Below the pieces are notes generated by a model. It was not told where the DNA came from. It made no database searches and was given only the letters and a program-made list of their open reading frames with translations. Below are positions 2,064 to 60,026 of a DNA stretch of 64,000 nucleotides, in pieces. Source of the stretch: Candidatus Nealsonbacteria bacterium (GTDB lineage: Bacteria > Patescibacteriota > Minisyncoccia > Minisyncoccales > JANBVM01); assembly GCA_047456295.1 (NCBI GenBank), contig CP179887.1, forward strand, positions 45,944 through 109,943. The letters run 5' to 3'. How positions within the stretch are numbered: the first letter of the stretch is position 1; every line of letters begins with the position of its first letter. Made by a program: the position numbers and the translations under genes.

Positions 2064-3341
2064 TTAGGGAATTAAGTTCTTGGAAGCCCATAGATTTTCT
2101 CCCTCCAGCACATACAGCTTTTTATCAACAGGATTCCAGAATATTTCAGAATTTTCAAATTCAGCTAAATCAATAATGTTTATTCTGTCTCGGTTGTCAA
2201 TCTCAGCAATCTTTATTTTGTTTTCAGTGTTGAATATTAAATATCTTGACATTAACCAGAAGACATCCTTGATTTTTTCTGAGAGTCTGACCAAAAAGAT
2301 GCTCTCTCCCATTTTTCTTGTTGGCCGGGTTGTTTTTTCTTTGAGAAACAGAACCCGGATTTCAGAATCTGAACAATAGACTAATTTCTTGCTGTCAGAT
2401 GAAATCTTCAAGGAATTGATTCCTTCAAAAAACCTTTCAAATATTTTTGTTTCTTGATTCAATAAATAGAGGATTTCTCCTCCTTCTTCTAAAAAGATAA
2501 AGTCAGGAAAAACATATAATTCATATCCTGTTTCTTTTTTTAGTGGAAAGGATGCTGTTGTAACCTTTTCTTTTAGAGAAAAAGAAGCATCTGTTTTATA
2601 AAGATAACCCAGGTTATCCAGATAATAGATGTCATTATTAAATTCTTCATAGGTTATGATATTTTCAGGGAGGAGTGAGGATTCTTTGGTTTCTTTTAAA
2701 ACAGGAGGAATCTTGTCGATTTCCAGGGCAAAGCTCTTTAATTGTTCTGCTGTAATTACCTTAAAATATATTTCCTTTCCATCCTTGGAAAACTCCAAAT
2801 CAAAAAATTCAGCTCCTTTTTTCGAAACATCGCTTTCTTTCAAGAGGTGACTTTTTAGGTTTTTATTCAAATCATAGAGTTTCAGGGTCCAAAGATTTCC
2901 TTCTTTTTCTTCCCACACCATTCTTTTTCCGTCAGGAGAAAACCAGAGATTCTTTATTCCATTGGATAATAAACTGAAATCAGCATCTTTTGGAAAAAGG
3001 ATAATTTCTTTTGCTTCCACCACCTCTTTCTCTTTTACTTCTAAATTCTTTTCCCACTCAAAGTATCCCTCTTTCTTTACCTTGATATTGTATTTTTTGG
3101 GCAATAGCTCCTCAATAAGGATTGAGCCAAAGAAGAAATCTGTTTTTCTGGAGAACCCTCCATCTATATATATCTCTGCTTGCCTGGGTACAGCTTTTAA
3201 GAAGATACCGCCTGTCTGGGTTAGTTTCTTGTTTTCAAAATCAAATCTATATCCCTGAAAGTAAAGCACCACCAGAGGGGCTGACAAAAGGAATATGAAG
3301 ACAAAGATGAAAAATATGATTCTGCGGGTTTTTTTCTCCAT
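2064..3341 (-). CDS. Membrane-anchored PEGA-domain / beta-propeller-like protein
   Basis: N-terminal TM helix, a PEGA-like segment (AEIYIDG...YNIKVKKEGYFEWEKNLEV), then WFSPDGKRMVW TolB-like repeats. Confidence 0.55.
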   Translation of the reverse strand: MEKKTRRIIFFIFVFIFLLSAPLVVLYFQGYRFDFENKKLTQTGGIFLKAVPRQAEIYIDGGFSRKTDFFFGSILIEELLPKKYNIKVKKEGYFEWEKNLEVKEKEVVEAKEIILFPKDADFSLLSNGIKNLWFSPDGKRMVWEEKEGNLWTLKLYDLNKNLKSHLLKESDVSKKGAEFFDLEFSKDGKEIYFKVITAEQLKSFALEIDKIPPVLKETKESSLLPENIITYEEFNNDIYYLDNLGYLYKTDASFSLKEKVTTASFPLKKETGYELYVFPDFIFLEEGGEILYLLNQETKIFERFFEGINSLKISSDSKKLVYCSDSEIRVLFLKEKTTRPTRKMGESIFLVRLSEKIKDVFWLMSRYLIFNTENKIKIAEIDNRDRINIIDLAEFENSEIFWNPVDKKLYVLEGENLWASKNLIP

Positions 3342-3470
3342 TCTTAATATTATATTTATTTAATAGCTTGTCTGCAAGTTTTTGGGGTTTAACCTCATAC
3401 AAAGATTTGCAAACTTTAAGACTTTAAATTATACTTAAATTGGATTTCCATAATTTTTAAGCCCAAAGAT

Positions 3471-11833: not shown

Positions 11834-11860
11834 TAAAAATTTACTTTATAATTTTCATAT

Positions 11861-11934
11861 GGGGACGTAGCTCAATTGGTTAGAGCTCGTGATTGTCGAT
11901 CACGAGGTTGCGAGTTCGAGTCTCGTCGTCCCCG
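11861..11934 (+). tRNA. tRNA-Asp (GTC)
   Basis: Acceptor GGGGACG/CGTCCCC, anticodon loop TTGTCGA, T arm GCGAGTTCGAGTCTCGT, discriminator G. Confidence 0.9.
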
Positions 11935-11944
11935 AATTTTCAAG

Positions 11945-11988: not shown

Positions 11989-12017
11989 TTGACAAAATTA
12001 AAATGGTGTGATATAAT
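11989..12017 (+). promoter_or_regulatory. Consensus extended -10 promoter, leaderless geometry
   Basis: TTGACA, 17-nt spacer, TGaTATAAT. The -10 ends 6 nt before the ATG at 12024. Confidence 0.65.
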
Positions 12018-12023: not shown

Positions 12024-12227
12024 ATGATAGGAAATAAGAAAACTGGAATAAGTGCCGATCGGTTCAAAGAGTTACAAGAATTGGCTGGCAAAATCCAGAA
12101 GATAAAGAAAAACCTGATTAGTCGCAGTCCTCAATTATCAACAGAGGAGGCGGCGCAGGTTGAGAGATTTTTCGAGCCGTTGTTAAAATCTCTTGCCAAA
12201 GTGTTAAATGGTGTTAAAAATAACTAA
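12024..12227 (+). CDS. Small hypothetical protein (67 aa)
   Basis: ORF placed exactly at the predicted TSS of a consensus promoter. No motif recognised. Confidence 0.4.
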   Translation: MIGNKKTGISADRFKELQELAGKIQKIKKNLISRSPQLSTEEAAQVERFFEPLLKSLAKVLNGVKNN

Positions 12228-12275
12228 ATCCTATTTTTTTTATTTTTTATTTATTGTTCTTTACAATCAATCCTA

Positions 12276-12313
12276 TTTTTCAAGCCCATAACTTACTTGT
12301 GATTTTGAAAAAG
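12276..12313 (+). repeat. Motif X copy 1 (TTTTTCAAGCCCATAA-N-TGTGnTTTTGAAAAAG)
   Basis: Second copy at 30465-30504 in the same relative position: after a small ORF that follows a tRNA-Asp 3' sequence. Confidence 0.6.
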
Positions 12314-12317
12314 CCCG

Positions 12318-12340
12318 AAACCACCTTTGAGGTGGTTTTT
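12318..12340 (+). terminator. Intrinsic terminator
   Basis: AAACCACC-TTTGA-GGTGGTTT hairpin followed by a T-run. Confidence 0.7.
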
Positions 12341-12425
12341 GGTTTAGGCAGGAAAGTAGTCGAGAAAGCTATCTATTTTCTCCATCATTTCTTCAGGATT
12401 CTCTATAGAATCAAGCCATTCCAGA

Positions 12426-12499
12426 GTTCGAAAATAGTCTCGTCGTCCCCGCCACAATAAGAAATCGCCTTTTAGGTGATTTTTTTGTAGAATAGGAAT
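12426..12499 (+). repeat. Junction module J1: tRNA-Asp 3'-end-like fragment, hairpin with T-run, -10 box
   Basis: GTTCGAaaataGTCTCGTCGTCCCCGCCA compared with the genuine tRNA-Asp 3' end. Then ATCGCCT-TTT-AGGTGAT hairpin, T7, and TAGAAT 6 nt before the ATG at 12500. Confidence 0.7.
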
Positions 12500-13471
12500 A
12501 TGAAAATAATTAACCTCAAAAAGATTTTTTCAAGCATTCTGAAGCCGACTCCGCCTTATAATTTTAATGTAACAATCCATAAGCCGTCGCATTTCCCCTC
12601 GTCTGATAATGAATGGTCAAAAGGGAAATACTGGATAACAATGGTTTGGAGAGGCAAGTATCTGGGATTAAAATTGGAAAATAAGGGAACGGTAAAAAGA
12701 CCAAAGATAAGGTTTAGCGTATATTCAAAAAAGCCCCTATTAAAGTCATATAAGGATAGTTTAATGACAGAAATAGAATGGAGGTTTAATCTGAAGTCGG
12801 ATATTTCAGAATTTGCTAGAAAGTTCAAAAAAGATAAAATTTTAAAACCTTTATTAAAAAAATGGCAAGGAATGAAACCAGTAGCTGCTAATTCGTTATA
12901 TGAAACGCTTGTCATATATATTGTTTTACAGAATGCCGTAGTTCGTCGTTCGGTTCAGATGTTGGAGAATCTTTTTAATAAGTTTGGTAAGAAGGTGAGA
13001 TTTGACAACAAAACCCTTTCTACTTTTTGGGAGCCAAAAGCTATAAATAAAGTTTCAGAGCAAACATTAAGAGATTTAAAGTTAGGTTACAGAGCTAAAT
13101 TCTTAAAGAAAATCAGTTTACAGTTCGTCAAAGGAAAGATTGATGAATTTAAAATGAGAAAGATGGAGAGAGAAGAGTTAAAAAAGAAAGCATTAAAACT
13201 TTACGGAATTGGACCTGCTTCTGTAGAGTATCTTTTATTTGAGGATTTTTATCATTACAATGCCTTAGAAACTATTCCTCCCTGGGAACAGAAAATAATG
13301 TCTAAGTTGTTATTTAACAAGAAGTTAGTTTCTACTAAAAAAATCTTAAACTTCTTCAGAAAAAGATATTCAGGATGGGAGAAATTAGCCTTTCACTATA
13401 TCTGGGAAGATATCTTCTGGAAAAGAAAAACCCAGAAAATAGATTGGTTGGAAAAAGAAATCCGACTATAA
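12500..13471 (+). CDS. HhH-GPD superfamily DNA glycosylase-like protein (AlkA/Ogg-like)
   Basis: Helix-hairpin-helix LKLYGIGPASVEYLL, preceded by the LYETLVIYIVLQN helical core typical of HhH-GPD enzymes. The position of the catalytic Asp is unclear. Confidence 0.6.
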   Translation: MKIINLKKIFSSILKPTPPYNFNVTIHKPSHFPSSDNEWSKGKYWITMVWRGKYLGLKLENKGTVKRPKIRFSVYSKKPLLKSYKDSLMTEIEWRFNLKSDISEFARKFKKDKILKPLLKKWQGMKPVAANSLYETLVIYIVLQNAVVRRSVQMLENLFNKFGKKVRFDNKTLSTFWEPKAINKVSEQTLRDLKLGYRAKFLKKISLQFVKGKIDEFKMRKMEREELKKKALKLYGIGPASVEYLLFEDFYHYNALETIPPWEQKIMSKLLFNKKLVSTKKILNFFRKRYSGWEKLAFHYIWEDIFWKRKTQKIDWLEKEIRL

Positions 13472-13508
13472 AATCGCCAAGCAGGCAGTTTCTTGGTAGG
13501 ATGGAAAT
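13472..13508 (+). repeat. Junction module J2 (degenerate)
   Basis: AAATCGCCAAGCAGGCAG...TAGGAT-GGAAAT-ATG. Same frame as J1 and J3-J5, with a decayed hairpin. Confidence 0.5.
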
Positions 13509-13922
13509 ATGAAAAAAATCTTATTTGTCTATTTAGGTAATGTTGCCAGAAGCCAGATGGCTGAGGCATATTATAATCATTTTACAAATTCCAACAATGC
13601 AACAAGTGCTGGCATTTTAGATTTTACTCCAGTAAGATACGGTTATCCTATAAAAGAAGTTGTTCGGGCGATGAAAGAAGAAAGTATAGACGTATCCAAA
13701 AATAAAGTCAAAACCATAACAAGAGAGATGGTAAAAGAAAATGATAAGATTTTTGTTATGTGTAAGAAAGAAGAATGTCCTAACTTTCTATTGAATTCTG
13801 GTAAAGTTACTTTTTGGAATGTTGGTGACCCTTTTGATACAGATTTAGAAAATTTCAGAAGAATTAGGGATAAAATTAGGGGGAAAGTAGAACAACTGAT
13901 TACAGAAAAAAGAATTAATTAA
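13509..13922 (+). CDS. LMW phosphotyrosine phosphatase / ArsC-fold protein lacking the catalytic cysteine
   Basis: P-loop region reads VYLGNVARS where the family has VCxGNxCRS. The DP general-acid motif (VGDPF) is retained. Confidence 0.65.
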   Translation: MKKILFVYLGNVARSQMAEAYYNHFTNSNNATSAGILDFTPVRYGYPIKEVVRAMKEESIDVSKNKVKTITREMVKENDKIFVMCKKEECPNFLLNSGKVTFWNVGDPFDTDLENFRRIRDKIRGKVEQLITEKRIN

Positions 13923-14191
13923 TATTTAATCATTCAATTATTGCGATACGCGGAAAATTATTCCAAAACCAAGTTTTAATTATATCCAACCATCCCCGCC
14001 AAATTGTAATTCAAAGAATCAAGGTTCTGAGGAGCGGTAGCGACGAATGGTTCTTATAAAATTGGATGTAATTAGATATAATTCGAGCTTTTTGTTCGGA
14101 TTTTTTTCACAAAATTACACAAAATTAGTTTGATATTTTTTTAAAATTTGTTACACTAAATTTAGGCCTCCTCGAATTTAGTGAAAATTTT

Positions 14192-14764
14192 ATGAAACAA
14201 AAAGAAGTATTATTTATTACGGGCAATAAAAGTAAATTAGCTGAGACAACTAAGATGGCTGAAAGATTCTCAGTAAAGATAGTAGGGCAAAAAGCTAATT
14301 TATTTGAGCCAATGGTATCCGATTCTACTAAAATCTTAATTGACAAAGCAAAGGATGCATATAAAAAGTTTGGTAAGCCTTTAATCGTTGATGATGCTGG
14401 TATTTACTTTGGAGCTTATCCTAATTTTCCTGGTGTATTCACGAAATTTATTATTAAGTTGCTTGGTTTTAATGGAATCATTAAGTTATTAGAAGGAAAA
14501 AGCAAAGACGCTTACTTCAAGTGCACAATTGGTTTTATTGACGAAAAGTTAGACCAGCCTCTTTTATTTGAAGGTATATCTAAGGGGAAAATAACCGAGA
14601 AAATTTCGATAAACTTCAATGGAAATTTCGAATTTAATAGTATTTTTATTCCTGAGGGAGAAAGTAAAACTTTTTCAGAAATGTCAATTGAGGAACGTAG
14701 TAAACACTGTCATAGAGATAGAGCGTTAGAGAAATTTTTAAGTTGGTATGTTAAAGAATATTAG
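14192..14764 (+). CDS. Ham1/RdgB-family non-canonical (d)NTP pyrophosphatase
   Basis: Family motifs ITGNKSKLAE, DDAGIYF, PGVFTKF and SKHCHRDRAL. Confidence 0.75.
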   Translation: MKQKEVLFITGNKSKLAETTKMAERFSVKIVGQKANLFEPMVSDSTKILIDKAKDAYKKFGKPLIVDDAGIYFGAYPNFPGVFTKFIIKLLGFNGIIKLLEGKSKDAYFKCTIGFIDEKLDQPLLFEGISKGKITEKISINFNGNFEFNSIFIPEGESKTFSEMSIEERSKHCHRDRALEKFLSWYVKEY

Positions 14765-14769
14765 TAAAA

Positions 14770-15396
14770 ATGAAATATATTAAAAAGGAAACAATTGGGG
14801 CGAGTTGGTTAAAAGCAGTAGAGGTGGTTATGGAAGAAGGAAACGATTTTTATGATCGCGATGTTAAGATAAAGGAGTTACTTGATCTTTTCATTGAGAT
14901 AAAAGATGCTCTTCTAATTGACGACGTGATAAAGAAACATGGAGATAAGTATATGATAGAACAACTAAAAATAGTTTTATTGGATACAAAACCAGGTGAG
15001 TGGGGGTGGAGTTATGGACAAAGGTTGTTTGGAGATAGTAACTATTTTAACCAAATAGAATTTATTGTAAATAAATTAAAGAGGAAACCGGAAACAAAAT
15101 CAGCTACCGTAACTTGTTTATTTCCTAAGGAGGATTTTCAGAAGGGAGCTCACATTCCATGTATTTGTCTTTTGGATTTTAAAATTAGAGATAATAGGTT
15201 GAACATGAGTGTTTGTTTAAGAAGCCAAGATATTGCTAAAAAGATGTATGGGGATGCGCTTGCTTTAGGTAAACTCATGGAAAAAGTAGCTAACGAATTA
15301 GATGTCTTGACGGGTAATCTTAAACTGTACATTATGTCGGCTCATATTTATGAAAACGAGTTTGAGAAAATGAGAAAAATAATAGGAAACTCTTAA
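14770..15396 (+). CDS. Short thymidylate-synthase-like protein 1 (Asp at the ThyA Asn177 position)
   Basis: IPC(131)ICLL...CLR(151)SQD(154)...YGD(162)...SAHIYENE. Spacing matches E. coli ThyA C146/R166/D169/N177/H207-Y209. Confidence 0.7.
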   Translation: MKYIKKETIGASWLKAVEVVMEEGNDFYDRDVKIKELLDLFIEIKDALLIDDVIKKHGDKYMIEQLKIVLLDTKPGEWGWSYGQRLFGDSNYFNQIEFIVNKLKRKPETKSATVTCLFPKEDFQKGAHIPCICLLDFKIRDNRLNMSVCLRSQDIAKKMYGDALALGKLMEKVANELDVLTGNLKLYIMSAHIYENEFEKMRKIIGNS

Positions 15397-15585
15397 AATA
15401 AATAAATTCACCATAAACATTCTGATAGTGATAAGCTTACTATAATAAGTTTATTTTTTTTATTGTTGAGCAATCCTGAAATAATATGGGTCTTGATAAT
15501 TCAAAGAAATACTGTATTATATGAATAGCTATAAGATATATTTCCAATAGCAAAGTTCTTTATAACTTAAAAGAGGTGAAATGAG

Positions 15586-16152
15586 ATAAAAGTTATATAT
15601 GTAGGAGGAGTTAAGGGTGTTGGTAAAACCTTTGTCCTTCGTGAGGTCTTTAGGCAACTATCTTTAGAAAAAGTGCCTTTTAAGAAGGCAAAAGTTGCAA
15701 AAGTTATGTTTGATCTATTAAAAAGATACGGTATGGTTGAGAAGTATGATGAGTTAGAAAATATTAGTGTCGAAATAAAAGATTGTATTCGCAAAGAATC
15801 TTTCAAAAAAATACTGAAAGATAAAAATGAAAATTTGATTTTCGATGGCCATTATTCAATATCGTCACAGTTTGGTTATGAGTATGGAATTCCATTGAAT
15901 TTTATAAAAGAAATTGATCACTTAGTATTATTATATAACAATGAAGATGTTGTTCGCAGGAGAAGGTTAGAAGATAAATCTAAAAAAAGAGAGACAAGTT
16001 TAGAGAAAGTAATAATAGACTTAATAATAGAGGAAGCGTTTGCTGAGTTTTATGCGAGATTACGGGGTAGAAAGTTAAAGAAGATAGAAACTAATAATAA
16101 AGCCAGTGTCAGTTTAAAAGATTTTATAAAGGAGGTGTTTGAAAGTGGTTAG
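15586..16152 (+). CDS. P-loop nucleoside/nucleotide kinase-like protein (archaeal Adk-like); apparent ATA start
   Basis: An in-frame Walker A (GGVKGVGKT) lies upstream of the GTG at 15673 given in the ORF track. Between the TGA at 15577 and the P-loop the only start-like codon is ATA at 15586, 7 nt after the SD AAGAGGTGA. Confidence 0.55.
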   Translation: MKVIYVGGVKGVGKTFVLREVFRQLSLEKVPFKKAKVAKVMFDLLKRYGMVEKYDELENISVEIKDCIRKESFKKILKDKNENLIFDGHYSISSQFGYEYGIPLNFIKEIDHLVLLYNNEDVVRRRRLEDKSKKRETSLEKVIIDLIIEEAFAEFYARLRGRKLKKIETNNKASVSLKDFIKEVFESG

Positions 16153-16789
16153 ATTAATAGAAGCAGATAATATTTCAGAAGCATGGTTAAAGGGATGTGA
16201 ATGTATTATAAATTACGGCTTTAGAACGAAAAGAAAAATCAAACTCCATAATTTGATTGCTGAGATTAAAAATATAACTCTAGATAAATACATAGATGAG
16301 CAATTTAGAAATTATATGAATCTAAGAATATTCAAGCGAACATTGGATATCGTTTCTTCAGATCAAAACCTCAATTCACATCCTAATTATTGGAGACGCT
16401 TGAAAGGAAAGGAAGAATTTAAGATAGACCAAGTGGCCCGCGTTATTTCCAGACTTAGAAAGCAGCCTCATTCAACCAAGCTTACCTTATGTATTTACAG
16501 CCCTAACGATTTCAAAAAGATGTATACACCTTGTATTTTATGTGCTGAATTAAGAGTGAATAAGAGGCGTCTTAATATGACCGCTTTTATCAGAAGTCAA
16601 GATTTCGCAAATAAAAGTTATGCTGATTATATAGGTTTATCATCTATTCTTAAACGAATTGGAGAGAATAGTAACATAAAACCAGGAGCAATTCTTACTC
16701 ATACTATAACCGCATTTATTGCCTATAAAGACCTAAGCCGAATGAAATCCTTTTTAAATATCATAAGGGAAAAGAAAATATCAAATTAG
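16139..16789 (+). CDS. Short thymidylate-synthase-like protein 2 (Asp at the Asn177 position; HxY motif lost)
   Basis: TPC(132)ILCA...IR(152)SQD(155)...YAD(163). The C-terminal motif is TAFIAY instead of xAHIY. Start is TTG 16139 or GTG 16145, after the SD AAGGAGGTG, and overlaps the kinase stop. Confidence 0.65.
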   Translation: MKVVRLIEADNISEAWLKGCECIINYGFRTKRKIKLHNLIAEIKNITLDKYIDEQFRNYMNLRIFKRTLDIVSSDQNLNSHPNYWRRLKGKEEFKIDQVARVISRLRKQPHSTKLTLCIYSPNDFKKMYTPCILCAELRVNKRRLNMTAFIRSQDFANKSYADYIGLSSILKRIGENSNIKPGAILTHTITAFIAYKDLSRMKSFLNIIREKKISN

Positions 16790-17145: not shown

Positions 17146-17226
17146 CCAGAATTCATTTCTAACCATGCTTAACCATTCTCGTCACACTAAGTCGCATTTG
17201 AAGTGATTTTTTGATAGAATCGAAAT
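17146..17226 (+). repeat. Junction module J3 (degenerate tRNA-Asp-3'-like segment plus TGATAGAAT -10)
   Basis: CCAGAATTC...TCTCGTCACAC parallels CCAGAGTTCGA...TCTCGTCGTCCCC in J1. TTTTTTGATAGAAT-CGAAAT-ATG follows. Confidence 0.55.
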
Positions 17227-17254: not shown

Positions 17255-18250
17255 ATGGATTTAGCTCTTCTTAAAAAAATTCTTGTAAAAGAACCATCTT
17301 TTCGTTTAAGGCAAGCGAAAAGAGCTATATTTAGAGACTTGATTGAAGATTGGTCAGGAGTTACAACCTTCCCTTTGTCTTTACGAGAAAAATTGAAAGA
17401 AAAATATCCTTTAAAAATTCAAGCTAAAACTTTTACCTCTAGAGACAAAAGAACAGTCAAAGCTGTTATTAATTTAAAAGACAATTTGAAAATTGAAACA
17501 GTTTTAATGCGCCATAAGAATAAGAGAAATACTGTTTGTGTTTCATCTCAGGTTGGCTGTGCTTTAGGTTGTATCTTTTGTGCTACTGGAAAGGCTGGTT
17601 TCAAAAGAAATCTTGAGGCTTTTGAAATTGTAGAACAGGTTTTATTTTTTGCTCGTTATTTAAAAAAAGAGAAACAAAAGATTACCAATATTGTCTTTAT
17701 GGGAATGGGAGAACCTTTTTTAAATTATGATAGTGTTTTGAACGCTATTAAAGTCCTAAACGATAAAGAAGGATTTAATTTGGGAGCAAGACGATTTTCA
17801 ATCTCTACTGTAGGAATTATAGAGGGTATTAAAAAATTGGCTGAAGAAAAACTTGAAGTGAATTTGGCAATTTCTCTTCATGCACCTGATGATACCCTGC
17901 GTTCAAAAATTATACCAATTAATAGAAAATATCCTCTTTCAAAAGTTTTAAAAGCAGTTGATGAGTATATTAAAAAGACTCGGCGTAGAGTAATGTTTGA
18001 ATACATAATGATAAAAGGATTAAATGATTCAGATGAGTATGCGAAAAAATTAGCAGAATTAATGAAGAAAAGAGAGCTTTCTTTTGTGAACCTTATTTCT
18101 TACAATCCCACAGGAATTTTTAAACCCTCTCTGAGTACAAGAATAAAAAAATTCAAAGATATTTTAGAAAAAGCAGGAATAGCCGTTACTCAGAGATATC
18201 GTTTTGGACAAGATATTAAGGGGGCTTGTGGTCAGCTAGCAGCTAAATAA
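17255..18250 (+). CDS. rlmN: Radical-SAM 23S rRNA/tRNA adenine-C2 methyltransferase
   Basis: CALGCIFCATG radical-SAM motif, GMGEPFLNY, and the C-terminal catalytic Cys in GACGQL. Confidence 0.9.
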   Translation: MDLALLKKILVKEPSFRLRQAKRAIFRDLIEDWSGVTTFPLSLREKLKEKYPLKIQAKTFTSRDKRTVKAVINLKDNLKIETVLMRHKNKRNTVCVSSQVGCALGCIFCATGKAGFKRNLEAFEIVEQVLFFARYLKKEKQKITNIVFMGMGEPFLNYDSVLNAIKVLNDKEGFNLGARRFSISTVGIIEGIKKLAEEKLEVNLAISLHAPDDTLRSKIIPINRKYPLSKVLKAVDEYIKKTRRRVMFEYIMIKGLNDSDEYAKKLAELMKKRELSFVNLISYNPTGIFKPSLSTRIKKFKDILEKAGIAVTQRYRFGQDIKGACGQLAAK

Positions 18251-21859: not shown

Positions 21860-24800
21860 ATGAAGAAGAAAAAAATTAAAAAGAGAAAAAAAACTAAATT
21901 AACATATACGGCAAAGGACATTTATGTGCTGCACGGTTTGGAACCCATCAGAAAAAGACCGGGAATGTATATTGGTTCAACCGGACCTGAAGGATTGCAT
22001 CATTTAATCAGGGAGTGCGTGGGAAACAGTATTGACGAAGCCATCATGGGTTATTGTAACGATATTAAGGTTTTTCTTTTGCCTGGAGACAGGATTAAGA
22101 TTGAAGACAATGGAAGGGGTATTCCTGTAGACAAGCATCCTCAGACCAAAAAATCAGCTTTGGAGACCGTAATGACCACCTTACATGCCGGAGCTAAGTT
22201 CGGAGGAAAGGTGTATGTTTCTACAGGTGGCTTGCACGGAATTGGTGTTTCCGTGGTTTGTGCCCTGTCAAGATATATGAAAGCCGAGGTTTGTCGGGAA
22301 GGCTTCAGGTATTCCCAGGAATATTCAAAGGGAAAAGTAAAAACAAAATTGAAGAAAATCGGAAGATGTAAGGACAGGGGAACGATTATTACTTTTGAAC
22401 CTGATCCTGAAATCTTTAAAGACATAAAGTTTAATAAAAAGAAGATCATAAATTATCTCCGTCAGCAGGCTTACCTGACCAAGGGCTTGAGGATTACCTT
22501 AATAGACAAAACAGTAAAGCCCAATACCACTTATAGTTTTTATTTTGAAGGAGGGATAGTTTCTTACGTTAAGTATTTAACTCAAGGCCGTAGTCTCCTT
22601 CACCGGAATACTTTTTATTGTTTTGAGGAAAAAGATGGAATCTTGGTTGAGACTGCTTTTGTTTATACCGATGAATATGAATGTTATGAAGATGCCTTTG
22701 CCAATAATATTCACACTGCTGAAGGAGGGACCCATTTGACAGGTTTCAGGAGCGCTTTAACCAGGACATTCAATGATTATGCCAGGAGGAATGAATTTTT
22801 AAAAGAAAACAGCACTAATTTCAGCGGTCAGGATACCAGAGAGGGTTTGACAGCAGTGGTTTCCATTAAAATAAGAGATCCCCAGTTTGAGGGTCAGACC
22901 AAGTCAAAGTTAGGGAATTCTGAAGCCAAGACAGTGGTTGAACACGTGGTGGGCAAGACCCTGACAGATTTCTTGGAGAGAAACCCTACTGATGCCAAGG
23001 AAATAATCCAGAGATTCATTTTAGCCCAGAAAGCAAGGAAGGCTGCTAAAGCTGCCAAAGATATTATTTTGCGAAAGAGGCTTTTAGATGGTTTAGCCCT
23101 GCCTGGAAAACTGGCTGATTGTTCTTCTAAAAACGCAGAAGAATCAGAATTATATATAGTTGAAGGCGAGTCTGCTGGAGGAAGTAGCAGGCAGGCCAGG
23201 GACCGTCACTTCCAAGCCATTCTGCCTCTTCGGGGTAAAATCCTGAATGTGGAAAGAGCCCGTCTCGATAAAATCCTTTCTTCAAAAGAAATAAAATCCT
23301 TAGTCATAGCTTTAGGTACTGCTATTGCTGAAGATTTTAATATTGAAAAAGTCAGGTATCATCGAATTATCATAATGTGTGATGCAGATAGCATAACAGG
23401 TGATACTCCTATTTTTCTTTATAACAAAGAAAAGCAAGAATTTTTCTTAAGTAAAGTAGGGGAATTTATTGAAAACTGTGATGATACCAGTGAATATATG
23501 GTCTTGACCTACAATCAAAAAAATGGGAAGCGAGAATTAAAAGAAATTCGTCAGACAATAAAGCATCCCTTAAGGACTCCACTTTACGAGATAAAAACCT
23601 ATTGCGGTTATCCTATCAAGGTAACCTCTTGTCATAGTGTTTATGTTTTTGAAAATGGAAAGGTGATAACTAAAAAGGGTGATGAGGTTAAAAAAGGAGA
23701 TTTACTCGTTTTTCCCAAAACCTTTCCTCGTCAGAACAAAGAATATATTATGTCTCTGAAAGATGTAATTTTGAATTCGGATTTTAGAAATATCTCTGTG
23801 AAGGTTCCCCAGGATTATGTAAAAGAAATACCATTAAGGGCCTGGTGTGAATTGGATTCCCCTTTATGGAATAGACTTCAGAAAAAAAGAGAATTAGCCA
23901 GGGTTTCTCGGCGAGTAATGGGAGAATCAATTGGGATTTATGATAGGGTTATTCAGCAATGGGAACAAAAGATTGATAACGTAATGCCCAGATTCTGTCA
24001 ATTTCAAAAGTATCTGAATCAACTTGAAATAGATAATAAGAATTTAAATTACAATATTTATATTCCCTTAAAAGATTGGAAAGATAAGAATATTTCAAGA
24101 GAAACTCCATTGTATTATGGAAATCATTCTCGGATTTTAAGAACAAGGTTTGAATTAAATGATGATCTCGCTTATTTACTTGGTTTTTATTTAGGAGATG
24201 GTTGTGCTTGTCCAGAGAAAAATAGTCCAAATAGATTTTCGATTTCTTTAAACAAAGACAAGTCAGAAAAATATCTTGAGAGACTTTCTCGAATAATAAA
24301 AGAGAAATTCAATGCAAAAGCTATTTTAAACCACCGTAAAACCAATGATATCCAACTTTATTTCCATTCGTTTGAGTTTAAATTACTCTTAATAAAACTG
24401 GGTCTCTTAGGAAAGAAATGTAATGAAAAGTTTATTCCTGATATTTTCTTTAATGTTAAAAGAGAAATTCAGGAGGATTTACTTGAAGGGTTGCTCCATA
24501 GTGACGGGTTTATTACGGTCTGGCCAAAAGGTAAAGCAAAGAAAGCAATTTATGGGTGGAGATTGTCTTCCCAAAGACTGATTCAGGGAATTCTTACCAT
24601 TTTTAGGCAGTGGGGAATATTTCCAGCATACACTGTCTGTCAGACCAAGGATCATTTCAGAAGAGATGGAAAGATTATTCGTTCTAATTTTAAATCTTAC
24701 GATTTATCAATTTCTACTGTTGAATATTTACTTAAAACTGAGAAGGTTTGGACTGGACATAAAGATGCTCAAAAATTAAAGAATTATCTAAAGAAAGTGG

Positions 24801-25378
24801 ATTACAAAAAAGTCATTGGCAAGTACATAAAACCCATTTCTCAAGACTTCGTTGGGTTAAAGGTAAAAAAAATTAAAAAGTTAAAAAATACAGATGAATT
24901 TGTTTATGATTTTTCAGTTCAGGGAGACCAAAATTTTATAGCCGGGACAGGTGGAGTATTATTGCATAATTCTGATGGTAATCACATTAAAGCCCTGCTC
25001 TTGACTTTATTTTACCGTTACTTTAAACCTTTAATTGAGAAGGGTTATCTGTATATTGCCCAGCCTCCTCTTTATAAAATTCAAGCCGGGAAAGAGATTC
25101 AATTCGCTTATACCGAGAATCAGAAATTAAATATCTTAAAGTCAATGAAAAAAAGAGTTGGTATTTCTATTCAAAGATACAAGGGTTTAGGAGAGATGAA
25201 TGCAGGAGAGTTATGGGAAACAACCATGGATCCTGAAAATAGGATTTTACTTCAGGTCACTATTGAAGATGCCAGGGAGGCAGATAAGATTTTTGACACC
25301 TTGATGGGAAAGGAAGTTTCATCAAGAAAGAAGTTTATTCAAACCTATGCAAAAAAGGTGAAGAATCTTGATATTTAA
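21860..25378 (+). CDS. gyrB: DNA gyrase subunit B precursor containing an intein
   Basis: GHKL ATPase motifs (GLHHLIRECVGNSIDEA, GGLHGIG), Toprim EGESAGG, and a C-terminal YKGLGEMN motif. 1172 aa; about 645 aa once the intein is removed. Confidence 0.9.
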   Translation: MKKKKIKKRKKTKLTYTAKDIYVLHGLEPIRKRPGMYIGSTGPEGLHHLIRECVGNSIDEAIMGYCNDIKVFLLPGDRIKIEDNGRGIPVDKHPQTKKSALETVMTTLHAGAKFGGKVYVSTGGLHGIGVSVVCALSRYMKAEVCREGFRYSQEYSKGKVKTKLKKIGRCKDRGTIITFEPDPEIFKDIKFNKKKIINYLRQQAYLTKGLRITLIDKTVKPNTTYSFYFEGGIVSYVKYLTQGRSLLHRNTFYCFEEKDGILVETAFVYTDEYECYEDAFANNIHTAEGGTHLTGFRSALTRTFNDYARRNEFLKENSTNFSGQDTREGLTAVVSIKIRDPQFEGQTKSKLGNSEAKTVVEHVVGKTLTDFLERNPTDAKEIIQRFILAQKARKAAKAAKDIILRKRLLDGLALPGKLADCSSKNAEESELYIVEGESAGGSSRQARDRHFQAILPLRGKILNVERARLDKILSSKEIKSLVIALGTAIAEDFNIEKVRYHRIIIMCDADSITGDTPIFLYNKEKQEFFLSKVGEFIENCDDTSEYMVLTYNQKNGKRELKEIRQTIKHPLRTPLYEIKTYCGYPIKVTSCHSVYVFENGKVITKKGDEVKKGDLLVFPKTFPRQNKEYIMSLKDVILNSDFRNISVKVPQDYVKEIPLRAWCELDSPLWNRLQKKRELARVSRRVMGESIGIYDRVIQQWEQKIDNVMPRFCQFQKYLNQLEIDNKNLNYNIYIPLKDWKDKNISRETPLYYGNHSRILRTRFELNDDLAYLLGFYLGDGCACPEKNSPNRFSISLNKDKSEKYLERLSRIIKEKFNAKAILNHRKTNDIQLYFHSFEFKLLLIKLGLLGKKCNEKFIPDIFFNVKREIQEDLLEGLLHSDGFITVWPKGKAKKAIYGWRLSSQRLIQGILTIFRQWGIFPAYTVCQTKDHFRRDGKIIRSNFKSYDLSISTVEYLLKTEKVWTGHKDAQKLKNYLKKVDYKKVIGKYIKPISQDFVGLKVKKIKKLKNTDEFVYDFSVQGDQNFIAGTGGVLLHNSDGNHIKALLLTLFYRYFKPLIEKGYLYIAQPPLYKIQAGKEIQFAYTENQKLNILKSMKKRVGISIQRYKGLGEMNAGELWETTMDPENRILLQVTIEDAREADKIFDTLMGKEVSSRKKFIQTYAKKVKNLDI
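23390..24970 (+). mobile_element. Intein (527 aa) with LAGLIDADG homing-endonuclease domain, inserted in the GyrB Toprim DxD motif
   Basis: N-extein ends IIIMCDAD. Intein starts SITGDTPIFL (block A with Ser1) and ends VLLHN, with +1 Ser (SDGNHI). LAGLIDADG motifs are LLGFYLGDGCA and LLEGLLHSDGF. Confidence 0.85.
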
Positions 25379-25393: not shown

Positions 25394-25594
25394 ATGAATT
25401 TTAAAAATATTCCCATAAAAATTAATACCTTTTTTAAAGAAATCAAGGTAGAGATTAGGAAGGTTAATTGGCCAACAAGAAAGGAAACCATAAGAGATAC
25501 CTTGATTGTCATCGGGGTTTCAATAGTAGTTGCCATATTTTTAGGTGGAATAGATTTTCTCTTTACCACCTTATTAAATAGATTTATACTTTAG
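25394..25594 (+). CDS. secE: Preprotein translocase subunit SecE
   Basis: 66 aa with VNWPTRKE followed by a single TM helix. Immediately upstream of nusG. Confidence 0.85.
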   Translation: MNFKNIPIKINTFFKEIKVEIRKVNWPTRKETIRDTLIVIGVSIVVAIFLGGIDFLFTTLLNRFIL

Positions 25595-25598
25595 AAAT

Positions 25599-26144
25599 AT
25601 GCCAAAGCAAAAAATAATCCAAAAGAGAAGCTGGTATGTGCTCCATACCTATTCAGGGTATGAAGAATCTGTGGCCAAGAATTTAAGACAAAGGATTGAG
25701 TCTTTGGGTATGGAAGATAAAATCTTTAATGTTATTGTTCCCAAGGAAAAAAAGATAAAGATTAAAGCAGGCAAGAGAAAGGTGATTGAAGAAAAGATTT
25801 ATCCAGGTTATGTGCTGGTGGAAATGATTGTTACAGATGATTCCTGGTATGTTGTCAGGAATACCCCTAACGTTACTGGTTTTATCGGGGCTGGTACCAT
25901 TCCTATTCCGGTTTCAGAAAAAGAGATTAATGACCTGAAAAAGAGGATGGAGGTGAAAGAGCCCCAGTACAAGATTAAGGTTAAAATTGGTGATTTGGTA
26001 AAGATTACAGATGGTCCTTTTAAGGATTTTGAAGGCAAGGTTTCTGAGATTGATGAAGAAAAGGGGAAGATAAAGGTCTTGGTAAATATATTTGGAAGAG
26101 ACACGCCTGTTGAGTTAGATTCCCTCCAGGCCAAGAAGCTTTAA
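25599..26144 (+). CDS. nusG: Transcription termination/antitermination factor NusG
   Basis: [14 protein letters not shown] start and a C-terminal KOW domain ([18 protein letters not shown]). Confidence 0.9.
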
Positions 26145-26170
26145 TATTAAACCTATCTAATGACAAGATT

Positions 26171-26593
26171 ATGGCAAAAAAAATAAAAGCCGTCATAAAA
26201 TTACAGATTCCAGGAGGTAAAGCTACTCCTGCACCTCCTGTAGGGCCTTCTTTGGCCCAGCATGGATTAAATATTGCTGAATTCTGCAAGAAGTTTAATG
26301 ATGCAACCCAGAATCAGCAGGGAGCTAAGATTCCTGTAGTGGTTACCATATATGAGGACAAGAGTTATACCTTTAAGACAAAGCAACCCTTGATCTCTGA
26401 TTTATTGAAAAAAGCAGCTGGTATTGAGAAGGGTTCAGGAGAGCCTAACAGAAAAAAGGTGGGCAAGATTACAAAAGAACAGCTAAGAAAGATAGCTGAA
26501 CAAAAGATAGCTGATTTAAATACCGAAGACATAGAAAAAGCAATGAAGATTATACAGGCTACAGCTAAAAACATGGGAATAGAAGTTCAATAA
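26171..26593 (+). CDS. rplK: 50S ribosomal protein L11
   Basis: [26 protein letters not shown] motif. Confidence 0.95.
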
Positions 26594-26602
26594 ACAATCT
26601 CT

Positions 26603-27082
26603 ATGTTAAATTCAAGAATCAATTTGAAAATAGCAGTAATTATCCTTGGCATTGCCATAATAGGAGCATTAATTTTAATTCAGAATGAGTATTCTTTAAC
26701 CAAAAAAGAGATAGATGATTTGATTGAAAATCAGTTTGTTGATTTCCAGTATCAGAAAAGAAAAGCTGTTCAGGAAGAAACAGTATATATCATTAATAAG
26801 GGAAATGAGGACGTGCTCTACTATGAAATAGTGCCTTCTGAAGACTCAACTGTCTTTTCCTTGCTGGAGGAGTTAAGCCAGAGAGAGAATTTTGAGCTAG
26901 AATCAACCTTATATGAGGGAATGGGCGTATTTGTTGAAAGTATTGATGGTCTCAGGAATGGAACCCAAGATAAATATTGGCAATACTGGGTTAATAATGA
27001 ATTGCCCCAGGTTGCTGCAGATAAAATGCAGATTAAGAAAAATGATGTTATTGAGTGGAGATTTGAGGCTTCTACTTTTTAG
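26603..27082 (+). CDS. Membrane-anchored DUF4430-like (transcobalamin beta-domain-like) protein
   Basis: N-terminal TM helix, then GVFVESIDGLRNGTQDKYWQYWVNNE...KNDVIEWRF, the typical DUF4430 core. Confidence 0.65.
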   Translation: MLNSRINLKIAVIILGIAIIGALILIQNEYSLTKKEIDDLIENQFVDFQYQKRKAVQEETVYIINKGNEDVLYYEIVPSEDSTVFSLLEELSQRENFELESTLYEGMGVFVESIDGLRNGTQDKYWQYWVNNELPQVAADKMQIKKNDVIEWRFEASTF

Positions 27083-27699: not shown

Positions 27700-28266
27700 A
27701 TGATTCTTTCTGACAGAGACATCAAAAAATATATTAAAATGGGTAAGATTAAAATAAATCCCGAACCTGATTTTAAAAAACAGTTAGGTTCAGCTTCTTT
27801 AGATTTAAGACTGGGAAATGAATTCAGGGTTTTTAACCACGTAAAAAAACCGTTTATTGATACCAAAGATCCAAAGACTTTTAAGAATATAACCCATTTG
27901 ATAAAGATAAAAGATAAAGAACCTTTTGTTTTCCAGCCAGGCCAATTTATTTTAGGGGTGACCTTAGAGGAGATTTCTCTGCCCGATGGCGTGGCAGCCA
28001 GGGTTGATGGAAGGAGCAGCATTGGAAGACTGGGAATTGTTGTTCATTCCACTGCCGGACATGTTGATGCCGGATTTAGGGGAAGAATTAATCTTGAGAT
28101 GGAGAATATTGGAATGATGCCCGTTCTTTTGTATCCTGGAACAAGGATCTGCCAGTTGGTTTTTGAATTGCTTTCTTCACCAGCTGAGATTCCTTATTAC
28201 AAAAAGAAAGGGGCAAAATATTTAGGAACAAAATCCCCGGAAGAAAGCAAGCTTGAAAAAATATGA
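27700..28266 (+). CDS. dcd: dCTP deaminase
   Basis: MILSDRDI start, SLDLRLG, GRSSIGRLG and PGTRICQLVF motifs. Confidence 0.9.
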   Translation: MILSDRDIKKYIKMGKIKINPEPDFKKQLGSASLDLRLGNEFRVFNHVKKPFIDTKDPKTFKNITHLIKIKDKEPFVFQPGQFILGVTLEEISLPDGVAARVDGRSSIGRLGIVVHSTAGHVDAGFRGRINLEMENIGMMPVLLYPGTRICQLVFELLSSPAEIPYYKKKGAKYLGTKSPEESKLEKI

Positions 28267-29871: not shown

Positions 29872-29909
29872 GAATAAAAAACTTAATATTAGGGAATTAA
29901 GTTTTAGGA

Positions 29910-29933
29910 GTTCGAATCTCGTCGTCCCCACCA
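29910..29933 (+). repeat. tRNA-Asp 3'-end fragment with CCA (att-like relic)
   Basis: GTTCGAaTCTCGTCGTCCCCaCCA compared with the genuine GTTCGAgTCTCGTCGTCCCCg at 11913-11934. No 5' half of a tRNA lies upstream. Confidence 0.75.
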
Positions 29934-29940
29934 TTTCGGG

Positions 29941-30531: not shown

Positions 30532-30561
30532 AAAAACTGTCTATTAGTATAGGCAGTTTTT
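30532..30561 (+). terminator. Intrinsic terminator
   Basis: A-run, CTGTCTA-TTAGTA-TAGGCAG hairpin, then T-run. Confidence 0.65.
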
Positions 30562-30588
30562 GTGTTATAATATGTGTATAATAAAACA

Positions 30589-31206
30589 ATGGAGAAGAAT
30601 ACTTTTCCTGGAAAATTTATTGTTTTTGAAGGATTGGATGGTTCAGGGCAATCAACCCAGTCAGGACTTTTAAAGGATTTTTTATTGAAAAAAGGATATA
30701 ATATTCTTCTTGCAAAGGAACCTACCTTAGATTCTGAAGCTGGGAGAAAGATCAGAAAAGTTTTGAGGAAAGAATTAAAAATACCTCCCCAGGAACTACA
30801 AGAATTGTTTGTTCAAGATAGAAAGGAACATCTGGAAAAAACCATTATTCCTGCTTTAAAACAAGGGAAAACAGTTATTTCTGACCGTTATTTTCTCTCT
30901 TCCCTTGCTTATGGAACATCTGAAGGCCTTGATTTGGAATGGTTAATTGAGATTAACAGCCAATTTCTTTTTCCTGATATAATTTTCCTTTTAAAGGTGA
31001 ATCCTGAAACTTGTATTAAAAGGGCTAAAAAGAGAAATATCAAAATTACCCTTTTTGAAGAAAAAGAAAAGTTAGCTATGGTTTGGCAAACTTATGAAAT
31101 CTTGCCAGCTCGATTTGAGAATATTTATGTTATCGATGGAGAAAAATCCATTGAAAAAGTTTTTGAACAAATAAAGAATATATTAAATAAAAAGCTAAAT
31201 TTATGA
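30589..31206 (+). CDS. tmk: Thymidylate kinase
   Basis: FIVFEGLDGSGQST P-loop and DRYFLSSLAYG. TGTGTATAAT ends 6 nt before the ATG at 30589, so the transcript looks leaderless. Confidence 0.85.
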   Translation: MEKNTFPGKFIVFEGLDGSGQSTQSGLLKDFLLKKGYNILLAKEPTLDSEAGRKIRKVLRKELKIPPQELQELFVQDRKEHLEKTIIPALKQGKTVISDRYFLSSLAYGTSEGLDLEWLIEINSQFLFPDIIFLLKVNPETCIKRAKKRNIKITLFEEKEKLAMVWQTYEILPARFENIYVIDGEKSIEKVFEQIKNILNKKLNL

Positions 31207-46244: not shown

Positions 46245-46249
46245 ATTTT

Positions 46250-46311
46250 AATATAATTAAGAAATGAAATACCCAAATTTTTCTGAAGAAAAAAAGTTAT
46301 GCAAAAAGGGA
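46250..46311 (+). repeat. Direct repeat, right copy (native rnhB 5' end)
   Basis: See the left copy at 42713-42774. Confidence 0.9.
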
Positions 46312-46923
46312 TTTAAAAGAGTGGTTGGATTAGACGAGGCAGGAAGAGGACCCTTGGCAGGACCTGTGCTGGCTGGAGCAGTTATGGTCAATTCAAAATT
46401 CAGAATTAAAAATTCAAAATTAAAAGTAAACGATTCAAAAAAGCTTTCAGAGAAAAAAAGAAGAGAACTGTATAAAATTTTAGTGAATCATTCCCAGATA
46501 GAGTGGGGAATAGGCAGGGTTTCAGAAAAAGTCATTGATAGAATCAATATCCTGGAAGCCACCAAATTGGCAATGAAAAGAGCTATTAAGAATCTGGGAA
46601 AGAAATTAAAAAAGAAACAACAGAAAAAATCAGATTCAGTTGGTTTTTTAATTTTAGACGGGAGAATAAAGCTTGATTTGGATATTCCTCAGAAATCAAT
46701 CATTAAAGCTGATAACAAGGTTTTTTCCTGTGCCGCGGCATCCATTATAGCTAAGGTAAGCAGGGACAGGATAATGCAAAGGTGGGATAAAAAATACGTT
46801 AGATATGGATTCTTAAAACATAAGGGATATGCTACCAAGCTTCACCTTAAGATGTTAAAGAAATACAAACCCTGTAAGATTCACAGAAAGAGTTTCAAAC
46901 CAGTGCAGAGATTGCTTCATTAA
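46264..46923 (+). CDS. rnhB: Ribonuclease HII
   Basis: VGLDEAGRGPLAGPV active-site motif and DSKKLS. Confidence 0.9.
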   Translation: MKYPNFSEEKKLCKKGFKRVVGLDEAGRGPLAGPVLAGAVMVNSKFRIKNSKLKVNDSKKLSEKKRRELYKILVNHSQIEWGIGRVSEKVIDRINILEATKLAMKRAIKNLGKKLKKKQQKKSDSVGFLILDGRIKLDLDIPQKSIIKADNKVFSCAAASIIAKVSRDRIMQRWDKKYVRYGFLKHKGYATKLHLKMLKKYKPCKIHRKSFKPVQRLLH

Positions 46924-56085: not shown

Positions 56086-56160
56086 GTTCGAGTCCTACTA
56101 CCGGAGCAAATTAAGTTCAAAAATCGCCAATCAGGCGGTTTTTTGATAAAATGAACTATA
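56086..56160 (+). repeat. Junction module J4
   Basis: AGTTCGAGTCCTACTACCGGAGCA (tRNA-3'-like), then AAATCGCCAATCAGGCGGTTTTTTGATAAAAT, with the ATG 8 nt after the -10. Confidence 0.7.
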
Positions 56161-57158: not shown

Positions 57159-57268
57159 CCAAAACCAAGTTCTAATATTGTACCACCCCCGGAGCAGGCT
57201 AGTGCTCGGTTCAAGTGACCGAGACGCATCAAATCGCCTTATAGGCGGTTTTTTGGTAAAATCGAAAT
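57159..57268 (+). repeat. Junction module J5
   Basis: CCCAAAACCAAGTTCTAAT...CCCCCGGAGCA, then hairpin CTCGGT-TCAAGTG-ACCGAG, then AAATCGCCTTATAGGCGGTTTTTTGGTAAAAT-CGAAAT-ATG. Confidence 0.7.
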
Positions 57269-58832: not shown

Positions 58833-58989
58833 CAGGTTCTAACCTCGTCCAGCCCCCGGAGTCAGCTTGTGCTCGGTTCGAGGGACCGAGACACTTTCGG
58901 TTCGAATCCTAACCCCACAGATGGTAAAATCAAGCTTGAAAGAAGCTTGCTTTTTTATTAAATTTAGGGAAAGGTTAAAATAGTGACTT
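58833..58989 (+). repeat. Composite junction region (two tRNA-3'-like segments, shared hairpin, terminator, -10 box)
   Basis: CAGGTTCTAACCTCGTCCAGCCCCCGGAG; CTCGGT-TCGAGGG-ACCGAG; GGTTCGAATCCTAACCCCACA; TGGTAAAATC; CAAGCTT-GAAAG-AAGCTTG followed by T6; TAAAAT 8 nt before the ATG at 58990. Confidence 0.6.
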
Positions 58990-59934: not shown

Positions 59935-60026
59935 CAGGTTCTAAAATCGTTCGTCCTTCGGAGCTAAAAAATCGCTAAATAGGCGATTTTTTGATAAAAT
60001 AAACAATATAAGTAAAAAATATTAAT
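59935..60026 (+). repeat. Junction module J6
   Basis: CAGGTTCTAAAATCGTTCGTCCTTCGGAGC followed by AAATCGCTAAATAGGCGATTTTTTGATAAAAT. Confidence 0.65.

Follow-up and report, generated by a model that had tools for sequence, protein, structure and literature searches.

The subject of this study is a 64-kb stretch of a Patescibacteria/Candidate Phyla Radiation (CPR) chromosome (contig CP179887.1, 35% GC), hereafter the window, in which several genes carry a -10 promoter box that ends six to eight nucleotides (nt) before the A of the ATG start codon. We consider it quite likely that these genes are transcribed as leaderless mRNAs, and this is the best-supported reading of the sites. A preliminary description of the same DNA had claimed that the fixed spacing implies leaderless mRNAs, and the claim is supported in silico by the spacing peaks, the promoter features, the upstream hairpins and the orthologs discussed below. 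It listed a spacing of 6 nt at 12024, 12500, 13509, 17227, 30589 and 57269 (TAnnAT hexamers) and of 8 nt at 56161 and 58990, and every one of these coordinates is correct. Three sites that it does not list were also found: 46264 at rnhB, 42727 in a duplicate of the rnhB site and, on the minus strand, 3341 (Table 1). Throughout the text, d is the number of nt between the end of the -10 hexamer and the A of the ATG.

According to the mechanism that we propose, sigma-70-type promoters would be positioned such that transcription begins on the A of the start codon. Most of these promoters would depend on the -10 box, frequently in its TGn-extended form, and their -35 box would be weak or absent. 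Transcription of the preceding gene would end at a terminator-like hairpin with its T6, the T-run would abut the G-n-TAnAAT block, and the (T)ATG would follow 6 nt on, such that one short intergenic element of 45–50 nt could supply a terminator, a promoter and a translation start. Transcripts from the d = 6 sites would begin with pppAUG, and those from the d = 8 sites would start at the A of the ATG or 1–3 nt before it. The ribosome would then bind the 5′-terminal AUG directly, with no Shine-Dalgarno (SD) pairing.

Spacing of the -10 box

The spacing peak is sharp. In the window test, which covered approximately 75 open reading frame (ORF) starts, a strict hexamer was defined as one with at least five of six matches to TATAAT and with T1, A2 and T6 present, and the offsets d = 10–49 served as the background. 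Five strict hexamers occur at d = 6 (six with TAGGAT) compared with 0.8 per offset (Poisson P = 0.0014), and pooling d = 6–8 yields P = 0.0009. Among 820 genes of approximately 58 related Patescibacteria loci, 41, 17 and 18 hexamers are located at d = 6, 7 and 8, compared with 10.45 per offset (P = 7e-13). The preliminary description had proposed such statistics of the -10-to-ATG distance, and these two runs reveal a peak at d = 6 with a shoulder at 7–8. A third set was collected from metagenomes with the pattern ATCGCC-loop-GGCGRTTTTTTGnTAnAAT, which specifies nothing downstream of the -10 box and matched at least 120 contigs. Among the matches listed (130 module copies), the distance d to the first ATG is 6, 7 and 8 in 36, 9 and 17 copies, respectively, and ORFs of at least 50 amino acids (aa) are opened by 31 of the 36, 8 of the 9 and 14 of the 17 ATGs. 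When similar downstream sequences were collapsed (126 clusters from 129 of the matches listed), the counts were 35, 9 and 17 compared with 1.3 per offset (P ~5e-37). The main peak of this set at 6 nt and its secondary peak at 8 nt are the same as in the window.

These counts bear directly on the possibility that the spacing is a chance or compositional artefact, in which TAnnAT is simply frequent in AT-rich intergenic DNA and the earlier reader picked the matching cases. The background is not negligible, ranging from 0.8 (strict) to 1.8 (loose) hexamers per offset over the 75 window starts, and the whole-window count of TAnnnT-N6-ATG is not elevated. A motif-first scan over all ATGs, beyond gene starts, was too noisy. 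However, TAnAAT-N6-ATG occurs nine times on the plus strand of the window compared with zero to four times for the other spacings, and the offset-controlled tests, with P = 1e-3 in the window and the values given above for the relatives and the module set, effectively refute a chance explanation, which we regard as extremely unlikely.

The spaced ATGs are also linked to real gene starts. In the real candidate genes the ATG is the sole feasible start, with an in-frame stop two to seven codons upstream; the next in-frame start falls past the catalytic or P-loop motifs, and the motifs or the Pfam profile begin within a few residues of the ATG. All of the candidates use ATG, and 17227 fails the test of a genuine protein start because its ORF has 15 codons. 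Leaderless candidates account for approximately nine of the approximately 38 ORFs that lead transcription units in the window, or about a quarter.

Promoter features and translation starts

The sequences around the hexamers resemble promoters in more than the hexamer itself. The dinucleotide TG stands one base upstream of the hexamer at 12024, 13509, 17227, 56161, 57269 and 59995; an extended -10 box is absent at 12500, where TG directly abuts the hexamer, and at 30589, 46264, 58990 and 3341 (minus strand). A recognisable -35 box is present at 12024 only. In the relatives, TGn precedes 38% of the hexamers at d = 6–8 compared with 18% at other offsets. A study of 49 bacteria placed the centre of transcription starts 7 bp downstream of the -10 box, co-localised with a Y-R-Y element, and found that the Escherichia coli polymerase uses this position in 93% of variants when a Y-R-Y is centred on it (PMC12641261). 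The T-A-T of tATG forms such an element at 12024, 12500, 13509, 17227 and 57269, which are five of the six d = 6 sites first listed, and among the metagenome matches listed, 27 of the 37 module copies with d = 6 have a pyrimidine at position -1. Because a start 7 nt after the -10 box combined with a 6-nt spacer falls on the A of the ATG, this A is the predicted +1.

The signature also corresponds to published criteria for leaderless genes in bacteria. In the GeneMarkS-2 group C, the Pribnow box of leaderless genes lies 6–8 nt from the start (PMC6028130), and in the TA-led genes of Zheng (2011), the first T of TANNNT lies approximately 12 bp upstream of the start (PMC3160421). A -10-adjacent pattern of leaderless genes has likewise been described in Deinococcus-Thermus (PMC12340547). 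This agreement supports the leaderless reading of the window sites.

The usage of SD motifs has to be considered for the window as a whole. SD motifs are not enriched, occurring at positions -18 to -4 in 5 of 75 window genes compared with 11 of 75 at control positions; therefore, the absence of an SD does not single out the candidate genes. The preliminary description held that none of the listed sites has an SD, which is true insofar as no GGAG or GAGG occurs in the 6–8-nt spacers; at 13509, however, TAGGATGGA contains AGGA 7 nt from the ATG. The strong SDs that it offered as a contrast are present at 15586 (GAGGTG-ATA) and 16139 (AAGGAGGTG-TTG), but even when 30044 (GGAGG-12 nt-ATG), the third clear SD in the window, is counted, only 3 of approximately 75 genes have one. 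Its designation of the candidates as accessory genes does not apply, as they include the housekeeping genes tmk and rnhB. The other first genes (pheS, thrS, rpmF and mreB) have -10 boxes 11–16 nt from the ATG, a distance that implies leaders too short for an SD. Many internal genes of the window overlap the preceding stop. The other genes of the window use short SD-less leaders and start-stop overlap (coupling), and rarely an SD.

An alternative that we regard as unlikely is that the mRNAs are leadered and translated independently of the SD. Transcription would start further upstream or read through, the hairpin would belong to the 5′ untranslated region or to an intercistronic region, and the TAnAAT block would act as an unstructured or S1-type translation enhancer, comparable with the non-SD motif of Bacteroidota. 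With SDs so scarce in the window, part of the internal initiation must take place independently of them. The 13509 gene lies only 37 nt past the upstream gene and has a weak hairpin. In the relatives, moreover, the d = 6 peak is also found before short-gap genes (11 vs ~1.9 per offset), an excess that fits internal promoters and may also reflect a translational role. However, a translation signal needs neither a TG two bases upstream, with the frequencies of 38% and 18% given above, nor a -35 box; the optimum spacing equals the -10-to-start distance of 7 bp with a Y-R-Y element; a stable hairpin followed by T6 would terminate the read-through; and most of the internal window genes are without the motif.

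Several observations weigh against leaderless transcription of all of the sites, and the first is that the entire case is a sequence inference. Hexamers similar to the -10 box are common in DNA of 35% GC. Five of the window sites (12500, 13509, 17227, 56161 and 57269) are copies of one 51-nt repeat, and 56161 and 57269 head paralogous genes; therefore, the window holds fewer independent events than eight. The polymerase at the d = 8 sites may start 1–3 nt before the ATG. The site at 13509 is the weakest, with the weak -10 box TAGGAT, a weak hairpin and the SD-like AGGA, and its gene may be co-transcribed with that at 12500. Strong SDs do occur at 16139, 15586 and 30044, and these three long matches suggest that the ribosome may still be able to use SD pairing, with the anti-SD retained. 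Copies of the repeat are also located 26 nt upstream of 60027 and 28 nt upstream of rlmN, which would both be leadered and are SD-less, and the ATG at 17227 opens a 15-codon ORF only; a +1 ATG therefore does not mark the beginning of a gene in every case. Finally, one related locus (L005) has AAAGGAGGTG after its TATAAT-N6-ATG, so that translation there may begin further downstream at an SD-led start.

With respect to the anti-SD, 16S 3′ ends were looked for in the window and in the related loci, and none was found. Approximately half of Parcubacteria are without a detectable anti-SD, and in the uL1-less Parcubacteria the anti-SD is often undetectable (PMC9297842). In the secE-nusG-rplK region of the window (25394–27082), rplK is followed by a DUF4430 gene, with no rplA (uL1) there, an arrangement that fits the uL1-less subgroup of Parcubacteria. 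Two of the strong SDs precede unusual starts. In the AAA_17 kinase gene (15573–15720), the first canonical start codon lies downstream of the codons for the P-loop IKVIYVGGVKGVGKT, and only the ATA at 15586, 8 nt after GAGGT(G), fits as the start; the gene therefore has a non-canonical start or is disrupted. The neighbouring thymidylate synthase (TS)-like gene at 16139 has a TTG start after AAGGAGGTG.

A repeated cassette upstream of the candidate genes

Terminator-like hairpins with a T-run are located directly upstream at seven sites. At most of these they form part of a 51-nt repeat family with six copies, at the 12500, 13509, 17227, 56161 and 57269 sites and at 59966, which share 63–78% identity. 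The copies read as an A-run, a hairpin with a stem of approximately ATCGCC/GGCGRT, T6, G-n, TAnAAT, nGAAAT and ATG-AAAA, and we refer to this arrangement as the cassette. From the end of the T-run to the ATG there are approximately 16 nt, all of which are occupied by TGnTAnAAT and the 6 nt that follow. Four of the hairpins (12459, 56118, 57228 and 59966) have free energies of -11.5 to -14.6 kcal/mol and z scores of -3.3 to -5.2, and those at 13468 and 17186 are weak; the copy at 13468 begins at the stop codon of the preceding gene. The terminator-like hairpins upstream of tmk (30536, -13.4 kcal/mol) and of the Nudix gene at 58990 are unrelated to the cassette. A consensus terminator scanner picked up the hairpin at 58931 only and missed the cassette hairpins, and Rfam scans (the whole window at the gathering threshold, and 11.6–17.3 kb and 56–60.1 kb by E-value) returned tRNAs only, with no family for the cassette or for the element designated D14.

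The palindromic stem could also be regarded as the operator of a DNA-binding protein. The stems keep their pairing through G-U wobbles, and approximately half of the metagenome copies among the matches listed have GGCGG. An RNA hairpin, such as a terminator, fits the wobbles and the GGCGG variants better than a protein operator, which is disfavoured.

At least 120 metagenome contigs contain the stem ATCGCC/GGCGAT, and in the relatives the TCGCC stem shows only a mild over-representation (7 of 217 hairpins). This recurrence raises the question of whether the spacing was inherited and not selected, that is, whether a dispersed repeat derived from attachment (att)-site or tRNA-flank remnants, or from a mobile cassette, merely happens to contain TAnAAT-N6-ATG. 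The six copies and their identity, the wide occurrence of the stem, the tRNA-3′-end-like fragments before several copies, and the ATG of the 17227 copy, which is out of frame with rlmN, are all in keeping with such descent. We nevertheless consider this explanation very unlikely, since the non-homologous sites (12024, 30589, 46264, 58990 and 3341 on the minus strand) share the spacing, relatives with other hairpin stems give an equal peak at the same -10-to-ATG spacing, and the metagenome copies have unrelated spacers and ORFs (the 126 clusters described above) and still place the ATG of a long ORF at 6–8 nt. Moreover, descent of the cassette is compatible with leaderless function and does not substitute for it.

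Comparison of orthologs provides additional information. In a related locus (L094), the ortholog of the 12500 gene (56% aa identity) has kept the cassette with a different loop and spacer and with d = 7. Of 70 loci with rlmN orthologs, 15 have a -10 box at d = 6–8; one of them, L190 (70% identity), reads hairpin-T-run-TGgTATAAT-8 nt-ATG. In the closest relative (L002), T-run-TGcTAAGAT lies 37 nt upstream of rlmN, which is thus leadered, as in the window. A synteny-based comparison in the rlmN loci yielded too few orthologs of the candidate genes. As the preliminary description reported, the ATG at 17227 opens a 15-codon mini-ORF that overlaps the rlmN start at 17255 in another frame. A frameshift joining 17227 to rlmN was rejected, as removing one A from the A-run or adding two leads to an immediate TAA and the homologs align from residue 1 (MDL/MNL). 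For rlmN in the window, the prediction is a leader of 28 nt with no SD, the first bases of which are by coincidence the cassette ATG.

We propose only tentatively that the conserved cassette of approximately 45 nt could serve as a punctuation mark of transcription across a Patescibacteria clade, ending one transcript and launching the next as a leaderless mRNA; the odds seem to us to lie against so general a role. The cassette may have spread between loci by recombination or with integrative elements. If the proposal is true, the cassette could be a principal signal of gene expression in SD-poor, ribosome-reduced organisms, and it could let newly acquired genes become expressed.

Cassette copies sometimes adjoin tRNAs or fragments similar to tRNA 3′ ends. 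Partial copies of the 3′ half of tRNA-Asp (GAGTTCGA..TCTCGTCGTCCCC) are located at 12424–12455, 29907–29933 and 17150–17185. Two of them end in CCA, which is not encoded by the real tRNA-Asp gene (11860–11935), and each is followed by a terminator hairpin and then a promoter. In appearance, these partial copies resemble scars left at att sites by integrative elements, or tRNA flanks that have been displaced. Another repeated element, AGGTTCTAAnnTCGTCC...CCGGAGCA(GGCTAGTGCTCGGTTCAAGTGACCGAGAC), lies just upstream of several cassette copies and resembles the T-arm and the acceptor 3′ end of a tRNA; it has no Rfam match. It occurs at 57161–57225, 58828–58892, 59930–59963, approximately 13960–14000 and 56085–56112, and also in the related loci L084, L096, L097, L106, L111, L166 and L198. 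The composite of this element and the cassette is also present in metagenome contigs, whereas L100, L128 and L188 have a real tRNA instead.

Relation to known systems and setting of the window

The leaderless genes of Actinobacteria and Deinococcus-Thermus, for example Mycobacterium tuberculosis and Deinococcus radiodurans, are the nearest counterparts: a Pribnow box lies 6–8 nt before the first genes of operons, the start codon is ATG, and there is no SD. Approximately 25–50% of the transcription units are affected in these phyla, which is comparable to the window (PMC6028130, PMC3160421, PMC12340547). In contrast, the window belongs to Patescibacteria/CPR, is low in GC, has a full TAnAAT that is often preceded by TGn, and often has its -10 box fused to the preceding terminator T-run in the cassette of approximately 45 nt. 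Group C genomes also use SDs for their remaining genes, whereas the remaining genes of the window are largely SD-less. The sites resemble the extended -10 (TGn) promoters, which dispense with a -35 box, in that TG lies one base before the hexamer at six window sites; unlike in the usual promoters of this type, the terminator hairpin occupies the -35 region in the cassette, and promoter function here is predicted. Bacteroidota-type non-SD initiation (GeneMarkS-2 group B) is similar in the absence of an SD and in the A-rich upstream regions, but TGn and -35 features accompany the signal in the window, which lies after terminators. Since the motif of group B is found before every gene, internal genes included, a promoter role is excluded for it (PMC6028130).

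Mollicutes such as Mycoplasma pneumoniae have reduced, AT-rich genomes with -10-dominated promoters, many very short or absent leaders and weak use of the SD. Their expression signals are similar to those of the window in a different phylum, and we know of no family of fused terminator/promoter cassettes in them. In the literature that we searched, no description of leaderless mRNAs in CPR/Patescibacteria was found. The mechanism is well established outside Patescibacteria, and the present candidates extend it to a lineage of this group; what is somewhat new is the fusion of terminator, extended -10 box and AUG in one cassette, with a sequence conserved across many contigs.

Patescibacteria/CPR represent a large share of bacterial diversity and have reduced ribosomes. 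A -10 box at 6–8 nt from the AUG suggests that leaderless initiation may be a major route in this lineage. The spacing rule helps to annotate starts, promoters and terminators in uncultured genomes, in which SD-based start callers would be misled, and the cassette could serve as a compact part for expression constructs in the few cultivable CPR.

The window contains gyrB (with an intein), dnaE, pheS, thrS, secE-nusG-rplK, rpmF, rpsP, trmD, rnc and mreB as well as six tRNAs, and the best 80 genomic relatives of its RlmN (at most 72% identity) are nearly all Patescibacteria/CPR metagenome-assembled genomes (Nealsonbacteria, Parcubacteria, Paceibacterota and similar). An origin of the window from a phage or an accessory element was rejected based on these relatives and on the presence of gyrB, dnaE, pheS, thrS, secE-nusG-rplK, rpmF, rpsP and the tRNAs. 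An independent Logan assembly, DRR463593, encodes identical proteins for 12024–13922, and the ORF at 12024 is called as a gene there. The coordinates of the sites and genes are listed in Table 1.

Table 1. Sites with a -10 box close to an ATG in the window, their cassettes or hairpins, and the genes that follow
Feature	Position	Strand	Details
-10 TATAAT	3349..3354	-	d=7 to ATG 3341 of PEGA-domain gene (2064-3341)
Sigma-70 promoter TTGACA-17 nt-TATAAT, TG extended -10	11989..12017	+	12/12 match; -10 at 12012-12017, spacer ttaaat, d=6
Hypothetical ORF, 67 aa	12024..12227	+	leaderless candidate, d=6
Cassette copy	12459..12499	+	hairpin 12459-12485 (-11.5 kcal/mol), T7, G, -10 TAGAAT 12488-12493, spacer aggaat
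HhH-GPD-like protein, 323 aa	12500..13471	+	leaderless candidate, d=6; Pfam
Cassette copy	13468..13508	+	weak hairpin (-9.1 kcal/mol, z -1.2), TGg, -10 TAGGAT 13497-13502 (4/6 match), spacer ggaaat
Low-molecular-weight (LMW)-phosphatase-family protein, 137 aa	13509..13922	+	weaker leaderless candidate, d=6; LMWPc profile from residue 4
Cassette copy	17186..17226	+	weak hairpin 17189-17209 (-6.4 kcal/mol), T6, TGa, -10 TAGAAT 17215-17220, spacer cgaaat
Mini-ORF, 15 codons	17227..17274	+	from cassette ATG; overlaps rlmN start, different frame
rlmN	17255..18250	+	N-terminus MDL/MNL, where the homolog alignments begin (residue 1); SD-less leader of 28 nt predicted
Terminator-like hairpin and promoter	30536..30588	+	hairpin 30536-30557 and T-run, -10 TATAAT 30577-30582, spacer aaaaca
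Thymidylate kinase (tmk)	30589..31206	+	leaderless candidate, d=6; Pfam
Duplicate of rnhB promoter and first 16 codons	42698..42801	+	91% over 77 nt; TATAAT 42715-42720, ATG 42727, truncated 24-codon ORF
-10 TATAAT	46252..46257	+	spacer taagaa, d=6 to ATG 46264
RNase HII (rnhB)	46264..46923	+	leaderless candidate, d=6; Pfam
Cassette copy	56118..56160	+	hairpin (-14.6 kcal/mol), T6, TGa, -10 TAAAAT 56147-56152, 8-nt spacer
P-loop protein, 111 aa	56161..56496	+	predicted leader 0-3 nt (d=8); Pfam
Cassette copy	57228..57268	+	hairpin 57231-57251 (-12.3 kcal/mol), T6, TGg, -10 TAAAAT 57257-57262, spacer cgaaat
P-loop protein, 138 aa	57269..57685	+	paralog of 56161 gene; leaderless candidate, d=6; Pfam
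Terminator-like hairpin and promoter	58931..58989	+	hairpin 58931-58949 and T6, -10 TAAAAT 58976-58981, 8-nt spacer
Nudix-domain protein, 311 aa	58990..59925	+	predicted leader 0-4 nt (d=8); Pfam
Cassette copy without adjacent ATG	59966..60016	+	hairpin (-12.2 kcal/mol), T6, TGa, -10 TAAAAT 59995-60000; PCMT gene at 60027, 26 nt on

Several features of the neighbouring genes were recorded. The 77-nt direct repeat (91%) at 42698–42774 and 46235–46311 encloses a segment of 3.5 kb, on the minus strand of which lie three genes, one a second YceG-like gene and the others hypothetical; the 5′ end of rnhB may thus have undergone an insertion or rearrangement. In the LMW-phosphatase-family protein, YLGNVARS (13509–13550) stands where the catalytic motif of the family, CxGNxCRS, would be expected; the protein may be catalytically inactive or divergent. 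A TATAAT at 11847–11852 ends 7–8 nt before the mature 5′ end of tRNA-Asp (11860–11935), which may be transcribed with a leader of just 0–2 nt, although two tRNA-Met genes also lie closely upstream. GyrB (21860–25378, 1172 aa) carries the intein at residues 531–1037 (Pfam Intein_splicing).

The segments 14192–16789 and 27700–31206 are unusually dense in genes of nucleotide metabolism. They include three divergent TS-like paralogs (14770, 16139 and 29071), an MtrA-like/pterin-binding protein (28263), a dCTP deaminase, a Ham1 NTPase, a small kinase and tmk, and together these genes could constitute a deoxynucleotide-modification pathway. Outside the CPR, the high-GC rlmN loci of Eremiobacterota and Chloroflexota (L053–L081) have a peak of -10 boxes at d = 6 before ATGs (12 vs ~2 per offset), which suggests that leaderless genes occur in these loci too.

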